Below are positions 13,710 to 20,855 of a stretch of DNA of 64,000 nt, in pieces. Position 1 is the first letter of the stretch. Every line of letters starts with the position of its first letter. This DNA is from Kofleriaceae bacterium (GTDB lineage: Bacteria > Myxococcota_A > Polyangia > Haliangiales > Haliangiaceae): contig CBDCCZ010000001.1 of NCBI GenBank assembly GCA_965215005.1, positions 64,001-128,000 on the forward strand, read 5' to 3'. The position numbers were made by a program, and so were the translations under genes. Below the pieces are notes generated by a model that did no database searches, was not told the DNA's origin, and saw nothing but the letters and a program-made list of their open reading frames with translations.

Positions 13710-15398
13710 CTAGCGATTGCTGATGAGGGCGCGGTGGTGCTTCTCGGCATCGGACAAGAGCGCGAGCAGGTCGCCGCGCTCGTTGGAGGTGCCGGCCGCG
13801 GCGGTGGCAATAGCGCGTATGTCGCGCAAGCGCCACGAGGCGGCATATGGGGAGCCGCGCAGCACTTCGGCGGTTGCCATGACGGCGACGGCAAAGCGAA
13901 AGTCGGCCGAGGCGGCTGCGAACGATGGCGCGAGCTCTTCGGACGCGAAGGAATAGGTGTGCTCGCTAGCGCGCGTGCCGCGCGGCTCCTTGGCGCGCAC
14001 CCGAACCGTTGCCAGCGGCAAGCGCGGGTCTTTGATCACCAGCTCGTAGAGCGCGGTGACCGTGTGTCCTGCGCCGATCTCGCCCGCGTCCACGGCGTCG
14101 TTGCGAAAGTCATCATCGGCGAGGTCGCGGTTCTCGTAGCCGATGAGGCGATAGCTGCTCACTGCCGCTGGATTCATCTCGACTTGGAGCTTCACGTCTT
14201 TGGCAACGACCTGCAGAACCCCGCCCAGTTGCTCGCCGAGCACGCGCTTGGCCTCGCGGAGCGAGTCGATGTAGTAGTAGTTGCCGTTGCCGCGGTCGGC
14301 GAGCTGCTCCATCATCGAGTCGCGGTAGTTGCCGGTGCCGAACCCAATGGTCGACAGCGTGACACCTTCGGCAACTTTGGCGGCAATGGCGGCGAGGATC
14401 TGCTCATGGCTCGTGGCGCCCACGTTGGCGTCCCCGTCGGAAAACACGATGACGCGACTGGTGGAGTTTGGGGCCAGATTCTTGGCTGCTAGCGCATACG
14501 CGAGCTCCATGCCAGAGGCCATGGAAGTCGAGCCACCGGCAGAAAGATCGTCGATCGCGGCGAGAATGGCGCTTCTCTTGGCGATGCTGGTTGGCTCGAG
14601 GACCACCCGCGTGTTGCCAGCATAGGTGGCAAGCGCGACAGTATCGCCCTGCTGCAGATTGTCCACCACGATGCGCAAGGCGCTCTTGGCGAGCTCGAGC
14701 TTATCGGGCGATTCCATGGAGCCGGAGACATCGACGAGGAATACCAGGTGGGCGGGCTGCCGCTGGTTGGCAGAGAGTCGTTTGGCCGCAACGCCGATCC
14801 GAAGCAGATGCTTGCCATTGCTGAGCGGCGAAGGCGCGGCGTCGAGGTGCACGGCAAATGGTGCTTGGTCGCGCGGACCCGCGTAGTCGTAGCCGAAGTA
14901 GTTGATGAATTCTTCAACGCGCACGTCTGCGGGCGGGACCGCATGACCATCGTGAAGTCGTCGTCGAGTGAGCGTATAGGAGCCGGCATCGACATCAATC
15001 GCAAAGGTCGATAGGCGGTCGTCCCTGGTGGCGATGAAGGGATTGACGACAGCGGTGTCATCTTCGGGAATGCGGATTAAGGGGGTTGATGCCGCGATCT
15101 GACCCGCACGAGGTTTCGACCGCCGTGCCGCGAGCTCAGCGTGCGCTGTGACTGGTGCGACCGGAGCTGGTTGCATCTCCGCCCGATGCGCATCCTCGTC
15201 GGCGGACGCAATGCCGGTGCTGGGGGCGTCGTCGCTTCCAGCGGTGGCACCGCCGACGCTAGAGGCCTGGTCTTTTGCTGCGATATACGGGGTTGGCTCG
15301 GCGGTGTGCGTTGCGGAGTGGGATTCGGGCGGGCGGTTGCAGCCGCCAAAGAGGGCGCTGGCAACCGCGCCGAGATAGAGAGCCTGAGTAGAGCGCAT
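13710..15398 (-). CDS. YfbK-like VWA domain lipoprotein (vWF_A / VWA / DUF3520)
   Basis: STFAIDVDAGSY, VRVEEFINYF, LVDVSGSM MIDAS, SDGDANVG, YRLIGYENR, DAGEIGAGHTVTALYE; SD AGGAGG before ATG 15398; lipobox FGGC. Confidence 0.92.
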   Translation of the reverse strand: MRSTQALYLGAVASALFGGCNRPPESHSATHTAEPTPYIAAKDQASSVGGATAGSDDAPSTGIASADEDAHRAEMQPAPVAPVTAHAELAARRSKPRAGQIAASTPLIRIPEDDTAVVNPFIATRDDRLSTFAIDVDAGSYTLTRRRLHDGHAVPPADVRVEEFINYFGYDYAGPRDQAPFAVHLDAAPSPLSNGKHLLRIGVAAKRLSANQRQPAHLVFLVDVSGSMESPDKLELAKSALRIVVDNLQQGDTVALATYAGNTRVVLEPTSIAKRSAILAAIDDLSAGGSTSMASGMELAYALAAKNLAPNSTSRVIVFSDGDANVGATSHEQILAAIAAKVAEGVTLSTIGFGTGNYRDSMMEQLADRGNGNYYYIDSLREAKRVLGEQLGGVLQVVAKDVKLQVEMNPAAVSSYRLIGYENRDLADDDFRNDAVDAGEIGAGHTVTALYELVIKDPRLPLATVRVRAKEPRGTRASEHTYSFASEELAPSFAAASADFRFAVAVMATAEVLRGSPYAASWRLRDIRAIATAAAGTSNERGDLLALLSDAEKHHRALISNR

Positions 15399-15487
15399 TG
15401 ATTCCTCCTGGATGGGTGGAGGGATCAACGAGCGGGATGCGCCCAGGGTCTGTAAAAAGTTGTCGCTTTCGGTGCTCGCGGCTTGCG

Positions 15488-18400
15488 CTACTCGACGAGC
15501 AACGGGCGCCGGAAAACCTCCACCCACGCGTCGCTTGCCGGCTGATCGATGACCCAGCTCGACATCACGACCTCATCGCCCGCGAGCGCTGCGGCGGCAT
15601 AGAAGCCGTAGCCACCGCGAAACGGTACGTCGTCGCCCGCGATCACGTCGCGACTCCAGGTGCCATCGGGGGCGCGCCGCGCGAGCAAGAGCTCATGGCT
15701 GGTCGCGTCCTGATACGCCACCACGGGGCCGGCGGGCCCGAGCACCAAGCTCGAGTCCTCGCCGACGAAGTGCAGCTCGGGGGTGGGCTCGGCGGCGCCC
15801 TCTTTGAGAACCTTGCGATAGCCGTCGTCGATGAGCTCGATTGAGCGATCGGCCGTGTTGATGTAGAAGAGGTCGTCGCTGGTGGCATTGACGTAGGTGA
15901 CGTGGATGACATCGTCGGCGCCCACCGCAATGCTGGGATACCAGCCGACGTCGGCGGACTCGCCATCGAGCACCTCGGGCGTGGTGAACACGCCGGCGAC
16001 CGGATCGAAACGCGCCAGCATCAGATCGCCCTGTTGTCGACTGTAGTAAGCGATGACCGGGCTCTGATCGGCGAGTCGTGCGGCATCGATGAAGAGGCCG
16101 GTGCCCGCGGGGATCGGAAACACGTCGCCCTCATCCGCGGCCGGCACCGTTGCTTCATCGACCACCCAAATCTGCCAATCGGCAGCGCTGGTGGGCGTTG
16201 CCGTCTGCGCCGAGGCGTAGCGCAGCTCGTTTCGCAGAGTTCCGTCGTCTGCGGTCACCTGCGCGAAGTACGCGATGCCCGGGCGGCCATCGTCACTGCG
16301 CAGAGTCAGGGAGGTATACAAGCCCGCCAGCTCCGCACCGCCTTCGTCGACGACGTGACTCTGCCAAACGCCACCGTAGTTGCCGATGAGGCGCAGCGCC
16401 CCCGCGTCGGCATCTAGGTAGCCAATGAGCACGGTGCCATCGGGCGCAACCGCGATGCTGGTGTGCTTACCGACATCGGGTCCCTTGGCGAAAACGCCGC
16501 CACGCACCTCAGACTGCGGCAGCACCACCGGCCCTTCCGGAACCCCGTCGATAAATTGCCAGCTTTCGCTTGAGATGCGGCCGGCACCTGCAACCTGCGC
16601 AACCATTAGATCGCCGTGGGTGGCGTTGTAGGCTGAAATCCACGCCGAGCCATCGGTGGCTACGGCGAGGTCTGAAAACTGGCCGACGTTGCCGTAGGTG
16701 ACGTCTTCGGCGCAGACGCATTGCTCCTGGAAGCACAGCGGGAACGTGTTCGTAGGGCACATCGCGGCGCAGTCCGCGTCGATGGCGCACATCGGCTCGG
16801 CATCAGAGGAGCTCGAGCCGCCGCAGCCGGATTGCAACGAGACGAGCGCCGCCAACAGCACGGTGAGGCTGCGTTTGACCCGCACGCCGCGCAGCGGGCG
16901 CCGTCGCAGAAAGAACATCGTGAAGGCGACCAAGAGCGCCAACACCGCGTGGCCACTGGCGCTGTCGCTGCGCGCATCGCAGTTGCAGCCGCCGCCATCA
17001 CCACCGCCGTGAAAGCCCGCAATCGGGGCCAAATCGAGCTCTTCGCGGCCTTCGTTGCCGCTGGAGTCGCGGGTCCAAACGGCAATGCGAGTGCCGGCGG
17101 CAATGCCTTGCAGCACGGTTTTCTCGATCGAGGTCTCATGTTGCCACTCGGTTGCCGGGCGATCGTCCTCAGGGCGGCCAAACGCCAGCTCGATCTCGTC
17201 GGCTTCGGCGACGAGGTCGGTGACCGGAAAACGAATCGCGTCGCCCTCTACCTCAATGCGATCGGTAAGTAGCTTGGGCGGAACCGAATCGATGATGACC
17301 GGCAGCGTCGTGCCGGCATCTTCGATGGTGCGATAGTCGCCGACCACCCGCGCCCGCAGCTCCAGCTGATAGCGACCCTGCCAAGCCAGCGCGCGGTCGG
17401 AAATGATCAATGGTGTCTGCTGGCTGAATGGACGATTCATTCCGCCATCGAGATTCCAGGTCCATTCGAGCGGCCGCCCGAGCGCGTCGGTGGCGTCGAC
17501 GTCGACGGTGATGGTTGGCAGCCGGCCTTCGGACGTTCCGGTGAAGAATCCGCGAACGATTTCTGGCGTGGGCACGTCGACGGCAGCGATCGCAGCGCGC
17601 GCGCCCGATACTTTCGGCGGCGCTGGTGCGGCGGCGAGCTCTGCAACGCGCGCGGTCAGATGCGCAAGTCGCGCCGGCTCTGCGGCTTGCGTGGGCACCG
17701 CTTGCGCAACGCTGTCGAGAAGCGCTGCGTTGGCGCCAAGACTCGCGTAGATGGCTAAGAACGTATCTTCGCTGGTTTGGACTTTCTGCAGGCGCAGGTC
17801 CGAGAGCGTGAAGCCTGCGATGTTTGGCAAGGTGAGGGCGCCGAGACCATCGGCGATGAGCGGCACGGCCAGGTCGAACACCGACGGCAGCACTTGCTCG
17901 AGCGTCGCCTTGTCCTCGCGGACGAACTCACTGTTGAGAACCTCGAGCGTGATGTTCTCGGTCTCGAGGCCAACCAGGGTGGGCATAATCGCGGGATTGC
18001 CCATTGCATCGGTGGTGAACTCGATATTGACGCCAACGTTCATCGATAGCTTGAGCGTAAAGCCGCGAACGAAGCGTTCGAACAAGAAGGCGTAGAAGTC
18101 GACCTCGAAGTTCTCGAGATGAATGGTGAGCGCTGGCGATTCGGCGGTGCCGTCACCGACGGTGAAGTCAGCTGGCTTTTGCGGTCGAGTGACGAGCAGC
18201 AGTGGGTCAGTTCCCTCGTCATTGCCGAGCTCCGATAGCGACGGCACGAGGATACCGATGGTCCCCAGGTTGAGCTGCTTGACCAAGCTCGTGCCAACGC
18301 CCAAACACAAGGCGCCCGAGGTGTAGGCGTGATGCGCGCCAAGGTCCAGTACGGTCTCGGAAACGCCAATCGCAACGTCTGAGGCGGGATCGGGCGCACC

Positions 18401-19471
18401 GAGGAACTCATCGGCTGGCGGCAGCTCGAAGGCGCCGCGCGCGTTGCGCGTGAGCGATGCGGGCGGGGCGGAGAAGTCGGGCGCTGCCACGCCGGGCACG
18501 CAGCGCACCGACTCATTGTCTTCTTCCTCGGAGCGCGTGGTGGGGTCGGCGTCGGCGTTGAGGCCGGTGACCATGCCGAGCGAAAGGCCGCCACCGGTGA
18601 GGCGGGCGTAGCCGCCGGGCACGCCGCGGACCTCCACCATCGCTTCGGTTCCGGGCGAGATTCCAGAGAGAATGGCGCCGACGTCGATGCGGCCCTCGAG
18701 GCCGAGCGGGGTCGGCAGAAATCCCTGCAACAGGTTGTTGATCGCCGGGCGCAAGACATTAAGCAGGAAGTCGCCGAGGAACGAGTTGATCACGCCCTCG
18801 AAGATATCGGCAACCACGTTGAGCACGGCGCGGGTGAGACCGCCGCCACAGCCCTGCACGTCCTCAAAGTCGACGCGGATGTCGGTGTTGTTGATCGACG
18901 CTAGGTCGATACCAACCTCGCCGGTCTCAGGCGATACGCTGAGCCGAATGTCACCATCGAGAGCGATGTCGGGAAATCGCATGGCGACGCGACATTCGCC
19001 ATCGAGGAGCCCCCAAAGCGCCTTCCATTTCAGCGACAGGGTGGTCGCGGCGGTGAACTCTGCGGCCACGCGCAACGTGTCTTCCCGATCCGCCACCGGC
19101 GAGGCCTCGGCGCTGGCGACCTCGAGCGAGATACGGCATCCAGGGCTGCAAGAGCCGTCCGCCTCATAGCAGATGGTGCCGTCGATGACGTCGCTGCTCA
19201 CCACTGAGCTTTCCGGCAGACAAAAGCCGCCACCGAGCACGTCGCGCACCGCCGCGGGTATTAGCGAGGTGATCTTCTCGAGGCCGGAGCGGGTCACGCG
19301 CACCTGCGCGCCGCCTTCGATGGTTTGGTCGGCGGGGAGGCCGCCTTCGGGCAGCGGCTCGATGCCGCACCCGCACCCGCTTCCGAGCCCGCCGAGCTCG
19401 CCGCAGGCGCCGAGCCCCACGAGCAAGACGAGCGATGAAATCCAGTTCCCCCAGCGTTGGCGAAAAAACAT
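15488..19471 (-). CDS. Large lipoprotein with internal MYXO-CTERM, second lipobox and C-terminal beta-propeller
   Basis: Lipobox GLGAC; internal GGGCNC-TM-RRR followed by KR-hydrophobic-LQSGC; seven G-x(2)-S-I-A-V-like blade repeats. Start at 19471 (GGAGG upstream) or 19543. Confidence 0.85.
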   Translation of the reverse strand: MFFRQRWGNWISSLVLLVGLGACGELGGLGSGCGCGIEPLPEGGLPADQTIEGGAQVRVTRSGLEKITSLIPAAVRDVLGGGFCLPESSVVSSDVIDGTICYEADGSCSPGCRISLEVASAEASPVADREDTLRVAAEFTAATTLSLKWKALWGLLDGECRVAMRFPDIALDGDIRLSVSPETGEVGIDLASINNTDIRVDFEDVQGCGGGLTRAVLNVVADIFEGVINSFLGDFLLNVLRPAINNLLQGFLPTPLGLEGRIDVGAILSGISPGTEAMVEVRGVPGGYARLTGGGLSLGMVTGLNADADPTTRSEEEDNESVRCVPGVAAPDFSAPPASLTRNARGAFELPPADEFLGAPDPASDVAIGVSETVLDLGAHHAYTSGALCLGVGTSLVKQLNLGTIGILVPSLSELGNDEGTDPLLLVTRPQKPADFTVGDGTAESPALTIHLENFEVDFYAFLFERFVRGFTLKLSMNVGVNIEFTTDAMGNPAIMPTLVGLETENITLEVLNSEFVREDKATLEQVLPSVFDLAVPLIADGLGALTLPNIAGFTLSDLRLQKVQTSEDTFLAIYASLGANAALLDSVAQAVPTQAAEPARLAHLTARVAELAAAPAPPKVSGARAAIAAVDVPTPEIVRGFFTGTSEGRLPTITVDVDATDALGRPLEWTWNLDGGMNRPFSQQTPLIISDRALAWQGRYQLELRARVVGDYRTIEDAGTTLPVIIDSVPPKLLTDRIEVEGDAIRFPVTDLVAEADEIELAFGRPEDDRPATEWQHETSIEKTVLQGIAAGTRIAVWTRDSSGNEGREELDLAPIAGFHGGGDGGGCNCDARSDSASGHAVLALLVAFTMFFLRRRPLRGVRVKRSLTVLLAALVSLQSGCGGSSSSDAEPMCAIDADCAAMCPTNTFPLCFQEQCVCAEDVTYGNVGQFSDLAVATDGSAWISAYNATHGDLMVAQVAGAGRISSESWQFIDGVPEGPVVLPQSEVRGGVFAKGPDVGKHTSIAVAPDGTVLIGYLDADAGALRLIGNYGGVWQSHVVDEGGAELAGLYTSLTLRSDDGRPGIAYFAQVTADDGTLRNELRYASAQTATPTSAADWQIWVVDEATVPAADEGDVFPIPAGTGLFIDAARLADQSPVIAYYSRQQGDLMLARFDPVAGVFTTPEVLDGESADVGWYPSIAVGADDVIHVTYVNATSDDLFYINTADRSIELIDDGYRKVLKEGAAEPTPELHFVGEDSSLVLGPAGPVVAYQDATSHELLLARRAPDGTWSRDVIAGDDVPFRGGYGFYAAAALAGDEVVMSSWVIDQPASDAWVEVFRRPLLVE

Positions 19472-19708
19472 GCGAACGAGGCCTCCCTGGCGACGCGTTC
19501 CCGACGCGCAACCCGTTTCCGTGATGCCGTAAAGCGGGTTCATGATAGCCGAGGTAGTCCTGGGTGGGAACGACGATCATGAGCGCTAGCTCATTAGAAT
19601 GACGGATGAATCTAGGGGGGTCCGGCCACTGACATGTAGGTCGTGGCTCGCAGACTCTTGACACTGGAGCGCCACCCGGATATCAAACCCGCCGGTCTCA
19701 TGACCTAA

Positions 19709-19944: not shown

Positions 19945-20580
19945 TCATTGCATCACGCCCAGCACGAACAATAGGTTGAGGTCCCAGCTCTGATAGTCGA
20001 GGTTGGAGTCGCCGTTGTCCTCGCTGTGAAACGCAATGGGGAGCCCCAACTGGGCGCCTAAGATGGTGTTGCCGTGCTCGAACGCAAACACCACCCCCGG
20101 ATCGATCAGGAAGCCCCAGCTGTCTTCGGTCTCGTCGTAGTCGACGATGTCGACTTGCGTGTTGAGCGTGACGTATTCGACGCCGGCGGCGAGCCGCCCG
20201 GCGATGAGCAAGTTTGCTGTCGGGCGCGTTGCCACCCGCAGGCCGCCCGTGCCGCGGAAGCGATTGGCGGAGAAGTCGGCGCCGACGTCGGTACCTGGAA
20301 CATTGATCTCTGAGTTCTCGAGGTGTAGCGGGCTCCACCCCAAGCCGATTTCGAAGCCAAGCAGAGGGCCTTCGTCATCGTCGCCATAGGAGCCGAGGCG
20401 CAGCCCGAGCTCGAAGCTGGTGTCAACGGCGGCGTCGTAGTCATCATCGTCCAGTGGTTGTGCGATACCCGCCGCGATTTCCGCAAATCTCTCCGCGTGA
20501 GCGGTTGATGCATGAAGCGTAGTAGCCACGCCGCCGAAGAAGACGGCGCAGGCGGTGATCGCGCACGAAGTAGTCCGCAT
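19945..20580 (-). CDS. Outer membrane beta-barrel protein
   Basis: Signal peptide ending AHA; about eight amphipathic beta strands. Start taken at MRTTSCA rather than the longer track start. Confidence 0.75.
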   Translation of the reverse strand: MRTTSCAITACAVFFGGVATTLHASTAHAERFAEIAAGIAQPLDDDDYDAAVDTSFELGLRLGSYGDDDEGPLLGFEIGLGWSPLHLENSEINVPGTDVGADFSANRFRGTGGLRVATRPTANLLIAGRLAAGVEYVTLNTQVDIVDYDETEDSWGFLIDPGVVFAFEHGNTILGAQLGLPIAFHSEDNGDSNLDYQSWDLNLLFVLGVMQ

Positions 20581-20855
20581 ACGCTGGACGGTACAGTGCT
20601 GCCGCCTCGGCTGCGACACACCGCCGCACGTATCGCTGAACCCGCTGTTTATTAACCGCAAAAAGAGACCGCGGCGTGTGTGTCCTAAGTACTTGTGGCG
20701 GAAGCCGTGAGCCGCTAGAAAACGACGAGCGACGGGGGAGACGCCGGAAGGAAGCGCCAGCTGCGGCTCGCGTCGGACCTCGCCCCGCATCGGTCGGGCG
20801 AGTCGCCTGATGATGACTAGAGGCGCAGCGGCTGCCGCGGTATCCTGCGAGAGTC

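Follow-up and report, generated by a model that had tools for sequence, protein, structure and literature searches.

The window analysed here is a stretch of 64,000 nucleotides from a Kofleriaceae bacterium (assembly GCA_965215005.1, contig CBDCCZ010000001.1, positions 64,001 to 128,000), whose genome is a draft of 62 contigs. On its minus strand, which carries every feature of the gene described below, lies a gene (15488..19471) that joins in one frame two exported proteins which are separate elsewhere, and this fusion is both real and conserved. The product begins with a lipoprotein signal followed by a predicted lipid-binding domain and beta-sandwich domains, after which a MYXO-CTERM tag is found within the protein and is followed by a second, lipoprotein-type signal, a Cys-rich linker and a beta-propeller. 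This precursor is probably processed at both of the internal signals.

Conservation of the fusion and its unfused relatives

The open reading frame (ORF) extends over 15488..19543 on the minus strand and comprises 1351 amino acids counted from its first ATG, and the residue numbers used below follow this count. Met25 (19471) is a sensible start and the upstream in-frame ATG at 19543 a less likely one, because a start at Met25 gives a normal lipoprotein signal and because the matches of orthologues begin near residue 23 or later. From Met25 the gene runs to the stop codon at 15488-15490. The DNA over the junction forms a single uninterrupted frame with no stop and no frame change, and the GC content of the gene, as well as that at its third codon positions (GC3), is ordinary for the region.

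A search with the whole protein over 41 genomes, namely its own and 40 relatives, gave matches in 37 of them. In 27 of the 40 other genomes a single match spans the junction, 26 of these being free of stops and one (G012) having two TAG codons. The initial annotation of this gene had considered a missed stop between the two signals, and none is present, the frame being open in the window and in the same 26 other genomes. The named relatives are Kofleriaceae and Haliangiales metagenome-assembled genomes (Myxococcota). A profile survey of 301 genomes of the class gave matches in 154, with all but 22 of its listed rows lying in open frames of at least 1000 amino acids and several of these 22 being cut by contig ends. 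The single-frame fusion is also found in independent public assemblies, and the public annotation of one fused member reads only 'hypothetical protein'. When a protein library was searched with the C-terminal part, 3919 proteins were obtained at E <=0.001. The best 150 of these were taken as representatives, 70 of which are at least 1000 amino acids long, and the junction was detected in 63 of the 70 with a relaxed pattern and in 50 with a stricter one. Among the seven missed by the relaxed pattern, four match the stricter pattern, the junction of P0077 was seen by eye and P0095 has a different architecture.

To this can be added that the window protein and 19 orthologues (n = 20, 41-50% identity), once aligned, all have in common a Cys motif, a helix, an Arg cluster, a basic loop, a second helix and a Cys. 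The positions of Cys853 and Cys907, on either side of the two helices, are each kept as Cys in 20 of 20 sequences, so that the second Cys proposed in the initial annotation is indeed conserved. Compared with the window protein, the orthologues reach an identity of 0.43-0.51 in the domains but of only 0.20-0.32 over the helices, the spacer and the loop. The low identity of the helices and loop, together with the invariance of both Cys residues, suggests a signal-like constraint on this segment.

Relatives were found in which the two parts are not joined. L061 (G035:C41), from another family of the same class, encodes a homologue of the N-terminal part with a terminal MYXO-CTERM tag, and the propeller lipoprotein is the next gene, the TGA stop of the first gene overlapping the ATG of the second (ATGA). 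This second gene encodes a lipoprotein signal, then the Cys-rich linker and then the propeller. L029 (G013:C15) encodes a homologue of the N-terminal part of 843 amino acids, which has a lipobox of its own and ends in a MYXO-CTERM tag followed by the stop, and no propeller gene comes after it. Three further loci, L065, L066 and L067, encode stand-alone propeller lipoproteins, the lipobox being canonical in L066 and L067 and reading A-P-A-C in L065; no N-terminal part was detected by tblastn in the approximately 4 kb upstream of each. Homologues split at the junction, for which the initial annotation had suggested a search, thus exist as the overlapping gene pair of L061, with the stand-alone halves of L029 and L065-L067 beside it. 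From the fused, split and stand-alone relatives it follows that each half can stand alone and that each signal is terminal in relatives; each signal of the fusion descends from a terminal signal. A further candidate for a stand-alone form, P0034 (489 amino acids in two sources), was set aside as its best genome matches are all fused.

An unrooted tree of 78 propeller parts was constructed with FastTree from 10 of 30 orthologues (every third), 62 fused representatives, the split form, and three verified and two unverified stand-alone forms. This tree placed the split form and the verified stand-alone forms within one clade (support 94) beside the fused clades.

The two signals at the junction

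The internal MYXO-CTERM tag (residues 850-882; 16898..16996) was identified with the model TIGR03901 and by its conserved Cys. It consists of the Gly-rich motif GGGCNC (residues 850-855; 16979-16996) containing Cys853 (codon 16985-16987) and Cys855, a spacer (residues 856-865), helix 1 (residues 866-879) and the Arg cluster RRR (residues 880-882). Against the curated TIGR03901 cut-off of 20 bits, the tag scores 25.7 bits as a fragment of 55 amino acids and 25.0 bits in a scan of the genome. It is internal and not C-terminal, with 469 residues after the Arg cluster, and starts at 62% of the protein, which makes the 'about two thirds along' of the initial annotation a fair description. All strings quoted in that annotation are present in the ORF, including the N-terminal lipobox GLGAC, which lies at Cys47.

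The genome scan with TIGR03901 gave 22 matches at or above the cut-off, and the best 25 of the 29 listed matches were inspected, four with E >=0.17 being left out. Twenty of the 25 inspected tags are terminal, the stop being reached 37-51 residues from a point 10 residues upstream of the match, and these show the same layout as the window tag. The other five, the window's included, are internal in this sorting by position, a check proposed in the initial annotation, and each is directly followed by a signal of the lipobox type or the signal-peptidase-I type. Among the four internal tags outside the window, two precede a lipobox, one of them in the frame-broken paralogue L031. The other of these two is in G000:C3:192711-198386 (1892 amino acids), where the tag is followed by L-V-S-G-C and long Cys-rich repeats, and this protein is a third family of the genome with a tag-plus-lipobox junction. 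The remaining two precede a signal-peptidase-I-type signal and barrel-like sequence, the signal reading A-K-A/Q-Q in G000:C6:98782-105201 (2140 amino acids) and A-R-A/D-V in G000:C3:31089-35291 (1401 amino acids). Within the family, 19 of 25 junction fragments reach the TIGR03901 cut-off; the 25 represent the window and 24 orthologues, after eight of 33 loci without a pattern match had been dropped, as well as L033, whose fragment is identical to that of L017. The first half of the segment between the two domains is a genuine MYXO-CTERM tag.

It should also be noted that two paralogues have the two parts in more than one frame. L031 (G000:C42:119500-125500) is distributed over several reading frames but shows the same junction, here with the canonical box L-A-G-C, and is either a pseudogene or affected by indels of the draft assembly. 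In L062 (G020:C19:80500-86500) the N-terminal part and the propeller part are in different frames, the change occurring after the Arg cluster and before helix 2, and this may be a one-base error or a real split.

The second signal begins near residue 880, far from the N-terminus, with a basic loop (residues 880-892; 16868..16906) that has seven Arg/Lys and no acidic residue. It is followed by a signal-like helix (residues 893-906) with a 14-residue core and by the lipobox-like sequence L-Q-S-G-C (helix and box, 16823..16867), which ends in an S-G-C box at Cys907 (16823-16825). The loop is predicted to be cytoplasmic, and would close the tag while also supplying the second signal with its n-region; across the orthologues it varies from 4 to 23 residues and is basic in all. 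The 'at once' with which the initial annotation had this signal follow the tag corresponds to this loop of 13 residues. Cys907 is followed by a Ser/Gly spacer and Cys-rich linker (residues 908-948; 16700..16822) with six further Cys residues, the columns of which are invariant or nearly so in the alignment.

The counterpart of this signal occupies the N-terminus of the propeller lipoproteins L066 and L067 and of the one encoded at the split locus L061. Directly before the second Cys, 38 of 63 family representatives have Gly, 22 have Ala, two have Ser and one has Asn. Two lipobox patterns (PROSITE-like and G+LPP-like) were applied, and 53 of the 63 representatives pass one of them, versus 443 of 1260 shuffled second helices. 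A Cys at +2 after the second Cys is found in 13 of the 63, while the window protein has a single Cys directly after helix 2. A Pfam search of 40-residue signal fragments gave no match, bona fide N-terminal signals included, and is thus uninformative. The second half of the segment descends from a genuine N-terminal lipoprotein signal.

Taken together, the two helices appear to have the features of a membrane hairpin, a reading supported by the succession of hydrophobic stretch, basic loop and hydrophobic stretch. The membrane hairpin of the initial annotation agrees with this layout, while the maturation into two products which it attached to the hairpin stays conditional. A different assignment of the segment was tried with NF058595 ('invert_tail', a lipo-invert putative C-terminal anchoring domain) and dropped. 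This model matched residues 866-914 with 18.4 bits against a cut-off of 37, and comparably weak matches occur all over the same genome and in 14 of 14 control genomes. A search of 151 genomes from the phylum detected no members of NF058595 at an E-value of 1e-6, and the phrase 'lipo-invert' was absent from the literature searched. The best sub-threshold matches of the genome to this model, with 29.6 and 27.6 bits, are two Rhs/YD-repeat proteins, L001 (G000:C61:107235-110426) and L002 (G000:C61:110136-113324). In these, a segment within the repeat region before the C-terminal tip consists of a helix, an Arg-rich loop and a second helix ending in L-S-C-G-G-G.

Proposed maturation and rival explanations

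The enzymes of both processing systems invoked in the initial annotation are encoded in the genome. One of its six CPBP proteases (G000:C47:53-949) passes Mrt_core (NF040914) with 110.3 bits against a cut-off of 100, and scores under the cut-offs of MrtP and MrtX, so that it is referred to here as a myxosortase-family protease. Lgt was detected with PF01790 (145.2 bits) and LspA with PF01252 (124.9 bits).

We infer the topology, both cuts and the final location of the products as follows. The N-terminal signal (residues 25-47; 19403..19471), which is 23 residues long, ends in LVGLGAC and has the lipobox L-G-A-C, would direct the N-terminal part across the inner membrane via Sec, with Cys47 becoming lipidated; the orthologues with an aligned N-terminus have a lipobox-like [A/G/S]-C at the same place. 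Helix 1 would then act as a transfer stop, leaving the Arg-rich loop in the cytoplasm, and helix 2 would insert N-in/C-out and so restart export of the propeller part. Cys907 would be lipidated by Lgt and LspA would cut in front of it, and the myxosortase-family protease would cut behind a modified Cys853. Two lipid-anchored proteins of about 807 and 445 residues would result in a 1:1 ratio, and a hairpin of about 53 residues would be discarded. The N-terminal product would carry a lipid at both ends (Cys47 and Cys853), and the stand-alone protein of L029 has the same double signal. More tentatively, and at somewhat less than an even chance, this may represent a Myxococcota route in which a tag placed head-to-tail with a lipoprotein signal forms a disposable hairpin, the myxosortase and Lgt/LspA cuts releasing two lipid-anchored proteins in a 1:1 ratio, one BPI-like with lipid at both ends and the other a lectin-like propeller.

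A number of points weigh against maturation at both sites. The support for it is comparative. Within the full protein of 1351 amino acids the tag scores 17.9 bits with TIGR03901, under the cut-off, and six of the 25 junction fragments are under it as well. The box L-Q-S-G-C of the window protein fails both lipobox patterns because of the Gln at -3; the second lipoprotein signal of the initial annotation therefore stands as regards its helix and Cys907 and is non-canonical as regards its box. Pro at -2 is frequent in close orthologues, and the stand-alone L065 has it too. Disulfide formation, instead of processing, is also conceivable for the Cys residues that flank the hairpin on its two sides, and acceptance by Lgt and LspA of a lipobox after an internal helix is an assumption of the scheme. 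Lipidation of MYXO-CTERM proteins is itself presented as a proposal in the literature (mBio 2025, Wall laboratory, PMC11980579). As to the origin of the gene, the unrooted tree is compatible with fission as well as with fusion.

The atypical lipobox, the Pro at -2, the Cys residues flanking both helices, which could pair, and the low full-length score of the tag would suit a protein that is never cut, in which a permanent inner-membrane hairpin holds two periplasmic domains and in which the tag and lipobox are relics of the fusion. This is considered unlikely. Relics should decay, yet both Cys residues are kept in 20 of 20 sequences, Gly or Ala is found at -1 in 60 of 63 representatives and the tag passes its model in most of the junction fragments, while elsewhere in the hairpin the sequence is free to drift. 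Nor are CxC motifs on both sides a general feature, given the one Cys after helix 2 in the window protein and the few representatives with a Cys at +2.

A slightly lower probability is given to a single cut, by which either LspA frees the propeller and the N-terminal part remains held by the hairpin, or myxosortase frees the N-terminal part and the propeller remains anchored by the hairpin. The two signals of the window protein are indeed unequal, the tag passing as a fragment and the lipobox failing the patterns, and in current models the MYXO-CTERM and lipoprotein-processing enzymes act independently (PMC11980579). Set against this is the conservation of both Cys residues and of both signal contexts across the family, and the split form L061, in which each protein must use its own signal.

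It is very improbable that the propeller part arises from an internal start, for example the GTG at Val886, the gene then being two overlapping cistrons. This loop codon precedes Cys907 by 20 codons and a start there would give a normal-looking lipoprotein signal; an in-frame ATG, GTG or TTG is present in the loop of 12 of 20 orthologues. The other eight have none, however, an upstream Shine-Dalgarno-like motif was found in 0 of 20, and the N-terminal part would still read through into the propeller part. As there is no conserved internal start, the propeller part would be exported as part of the precursor, which requires helix 2 to insert N-in/C-out. An assembly or sequencing artefact, that is a missed stop or a one-base error joining two genes, could be suspected since the split form differs from the fusion only by the frame at the ATGA overlap, the genome is a draft and frame changes interrupt a paralogue on a different contig, yet it is rejected as practically negligible because the same single frame recurs in the 26 stop-free related genomes, in most matches of the 301-genome survey and in independent public assemblies, as well as over all 20 aligned junctions.

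If both cuts take place, bacteria would have in this gene a counterpart of membrane polyprotein processing that dispenses with a dedicated protease, two ordinary sorting signals back to back being sufficient. LspA and Lgt would then be able to act on an internal signal and myxosortase on an internal tag, and it would be explained why such tags are missed by gene callers and domain models, which expect them only at the ends of proteins. The family, with its fused, split-and-coupled and stand-alone forms, represents a natural test set. The weight of this is limited by one fused example being already in print.

Domains, neighbouring genes and known systems

An AlphaFold2 model of residues 47-850 was obtained with a mean predicted local distance difference test (pLDDT) of 83.9 and a predicted template modelling score (pTM) of 0.79. 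It contains a two-lobed BPI/LBP/CETP-like (TULIP-type) lipid-binding domain over approximately residues 74-606 (17726..19324), for which the best Foldseek match is human BPI (1bp1, E 3.6e-21, TM-score 0.62 on the target, 551 columns), with further matches to LBP (4m4d) and CETP (2obd); approximately the first 560 residues are covered. The N-terminal part is like these proteins in its two-lobed fold, with long twisted sheets around long helices. It differs from them in its identity of about 15% and in being bacterial and predicted to be lipid-anchored, the likeness being one of fold alone. Pfam searches of the whole protein and of both halves gave no family at E up to 1, the LBP_BPI_CETP models included. 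Going by the model, the family would add a bacterial BPI-like fold. The domain is followed by beta-sandwich (Ig/FN3-like) domains at approximately residues 650-837 (17033..17596), an approximate assignment from the secondary structure of the model and from Foldseek, with pLDDT mostly >90 and FN3/Ig-type matches of about 200 columns.

For the propeller part (residues 949-1351; 15491..16699) the AlphaFold2 model has a pLDDT of 92.2 and a pTM of 0.91 and shows about seven four-stranded blades, in line with the seven-bladed propeller of the initial annotation. The best Foldseek matches are to the seven-bladed lectins PLL/PHL of Photorhabdus (E 1e-13, 12% identity), which bind sugars between their blades, followed by sialidase-like propellers. 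The fold match to PLL/PHL is moderate (TM-score 0.66 on the target and 0.52 on the query). A complex prediction of the Ig-like domains (residues 598-800 of the N-terminal segment) with the propeller (score 0.00, mark 0.32) speaks neither for nor against binding. As a guess, the halves may be a lipid-binding module and a possibly sugar-binding propeller at the envelope. Together they could make up a surface module directed at other cells, whose envelope lipids or lipopolysaccharide it would bind or extract in the course of predation or of outer-membrane exchange.

On the same strand, the gene has as its downstream neighbour a gene for a VWA/YfbK-type lipoprotein (window 13710-15401) and as its upstream neighbour one for a small outer-membrane beta-barrel (window 19945-20790). 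The VWA/YfbK gene adjoins the orthologue in five of 33 related loci, namely in five of the 19 with short flanks and in none of the 14 with up to 6 kb of flank.

Classical bacterial lipoprotein maturation proceeds through Lgt and LspA. The second signal of the window protein is like the substrates of these enzymes in its positive n-region, its 14-residue core, the small residues at -1 and -2 and the Cys, and would use the same Lgt and LspA. It differs in being internal, about 890 residues into the protein, in having to insert as the second leg of a hairpin and in its Gln at -3. In the literature searched, none of the phrases 'internal lipobox', 'internal lipoprotein signal' and 'second lipobox' occurs. 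Viral glycoprotein precursors and the FbcH precursor of the Bradyrhizobium cytochrome bc1 contain a helix, a cytoplasmic loop and a cleavable internal signal, and in this way one chain gives two membrane-associated products. These precursors are cut by signal peptidase I or by the signal peptidase complex of the host, whereas the window protein points to cutting by a lipoprotein signal peptidase and a CPBP-type protease, with lipid attached to either product.

The terminal MYXO-CTERM proteins and their myxosortase MrtX (e.g., TraA; PMC11980579, bioRxiv 10.1101/2023.06.07.544157) have the same Gly-rich motif, invariant Cys, spacer, helix and Arg cluster as the window tag. A Myxococcota host and a myxosortase-family protease are also shared, and the difference lies in the 469 residues which follow the window tag. 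Internal tags, fusions, lipoprotein signals and polyproteins are unmentioned in the preprint by Haft (10.1101/2023.06.07.544157).

Internal MYXO-CTERM motifs are described as rare in PMC11980579, and the example given there is MXAN_5598 of Myxococcus xanthus, in which an adhesin is probably fused to an outer-membrane barrel/OmpA protein. Processing and surface anchoring have been proposed for its N-terminal part, with the internal function of sorting tags being cited (PMC11980579). On that description, MXAN_5598 shares with the window protein only the internal tag in the middle of an ORF that is read as a fusion of two genes. Behind the tag it continues into an outer-membrane barrel and an OmpA domain, in contrast to the lipobox-type signal, Cys-rich linker and propeller of the window protein. 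Its domains are unrelated to the BPI-like and propeller domains, and no second signal or lipobox is discussed for it in the relevant passages of that paper (PMC11980579). The proteins of this genome that appear to resemble MXAN_5598 are the two with barrel-like sequence after the tag (G000:C6:98782-105201 and G000:C3:31089-35291). The downstream part of the window protein starts with a lipoprotein-type signal, which implies a second lipid anchor and a second processing system beside the first. Thus, as far as the published text considered here extends, an internal MYXO-CTERM fusion is in print for one protein, MXAN_5598, and the lipoprotein signal after the tag, the family combining a BPI-like part with a propeller and the documented split form are new.

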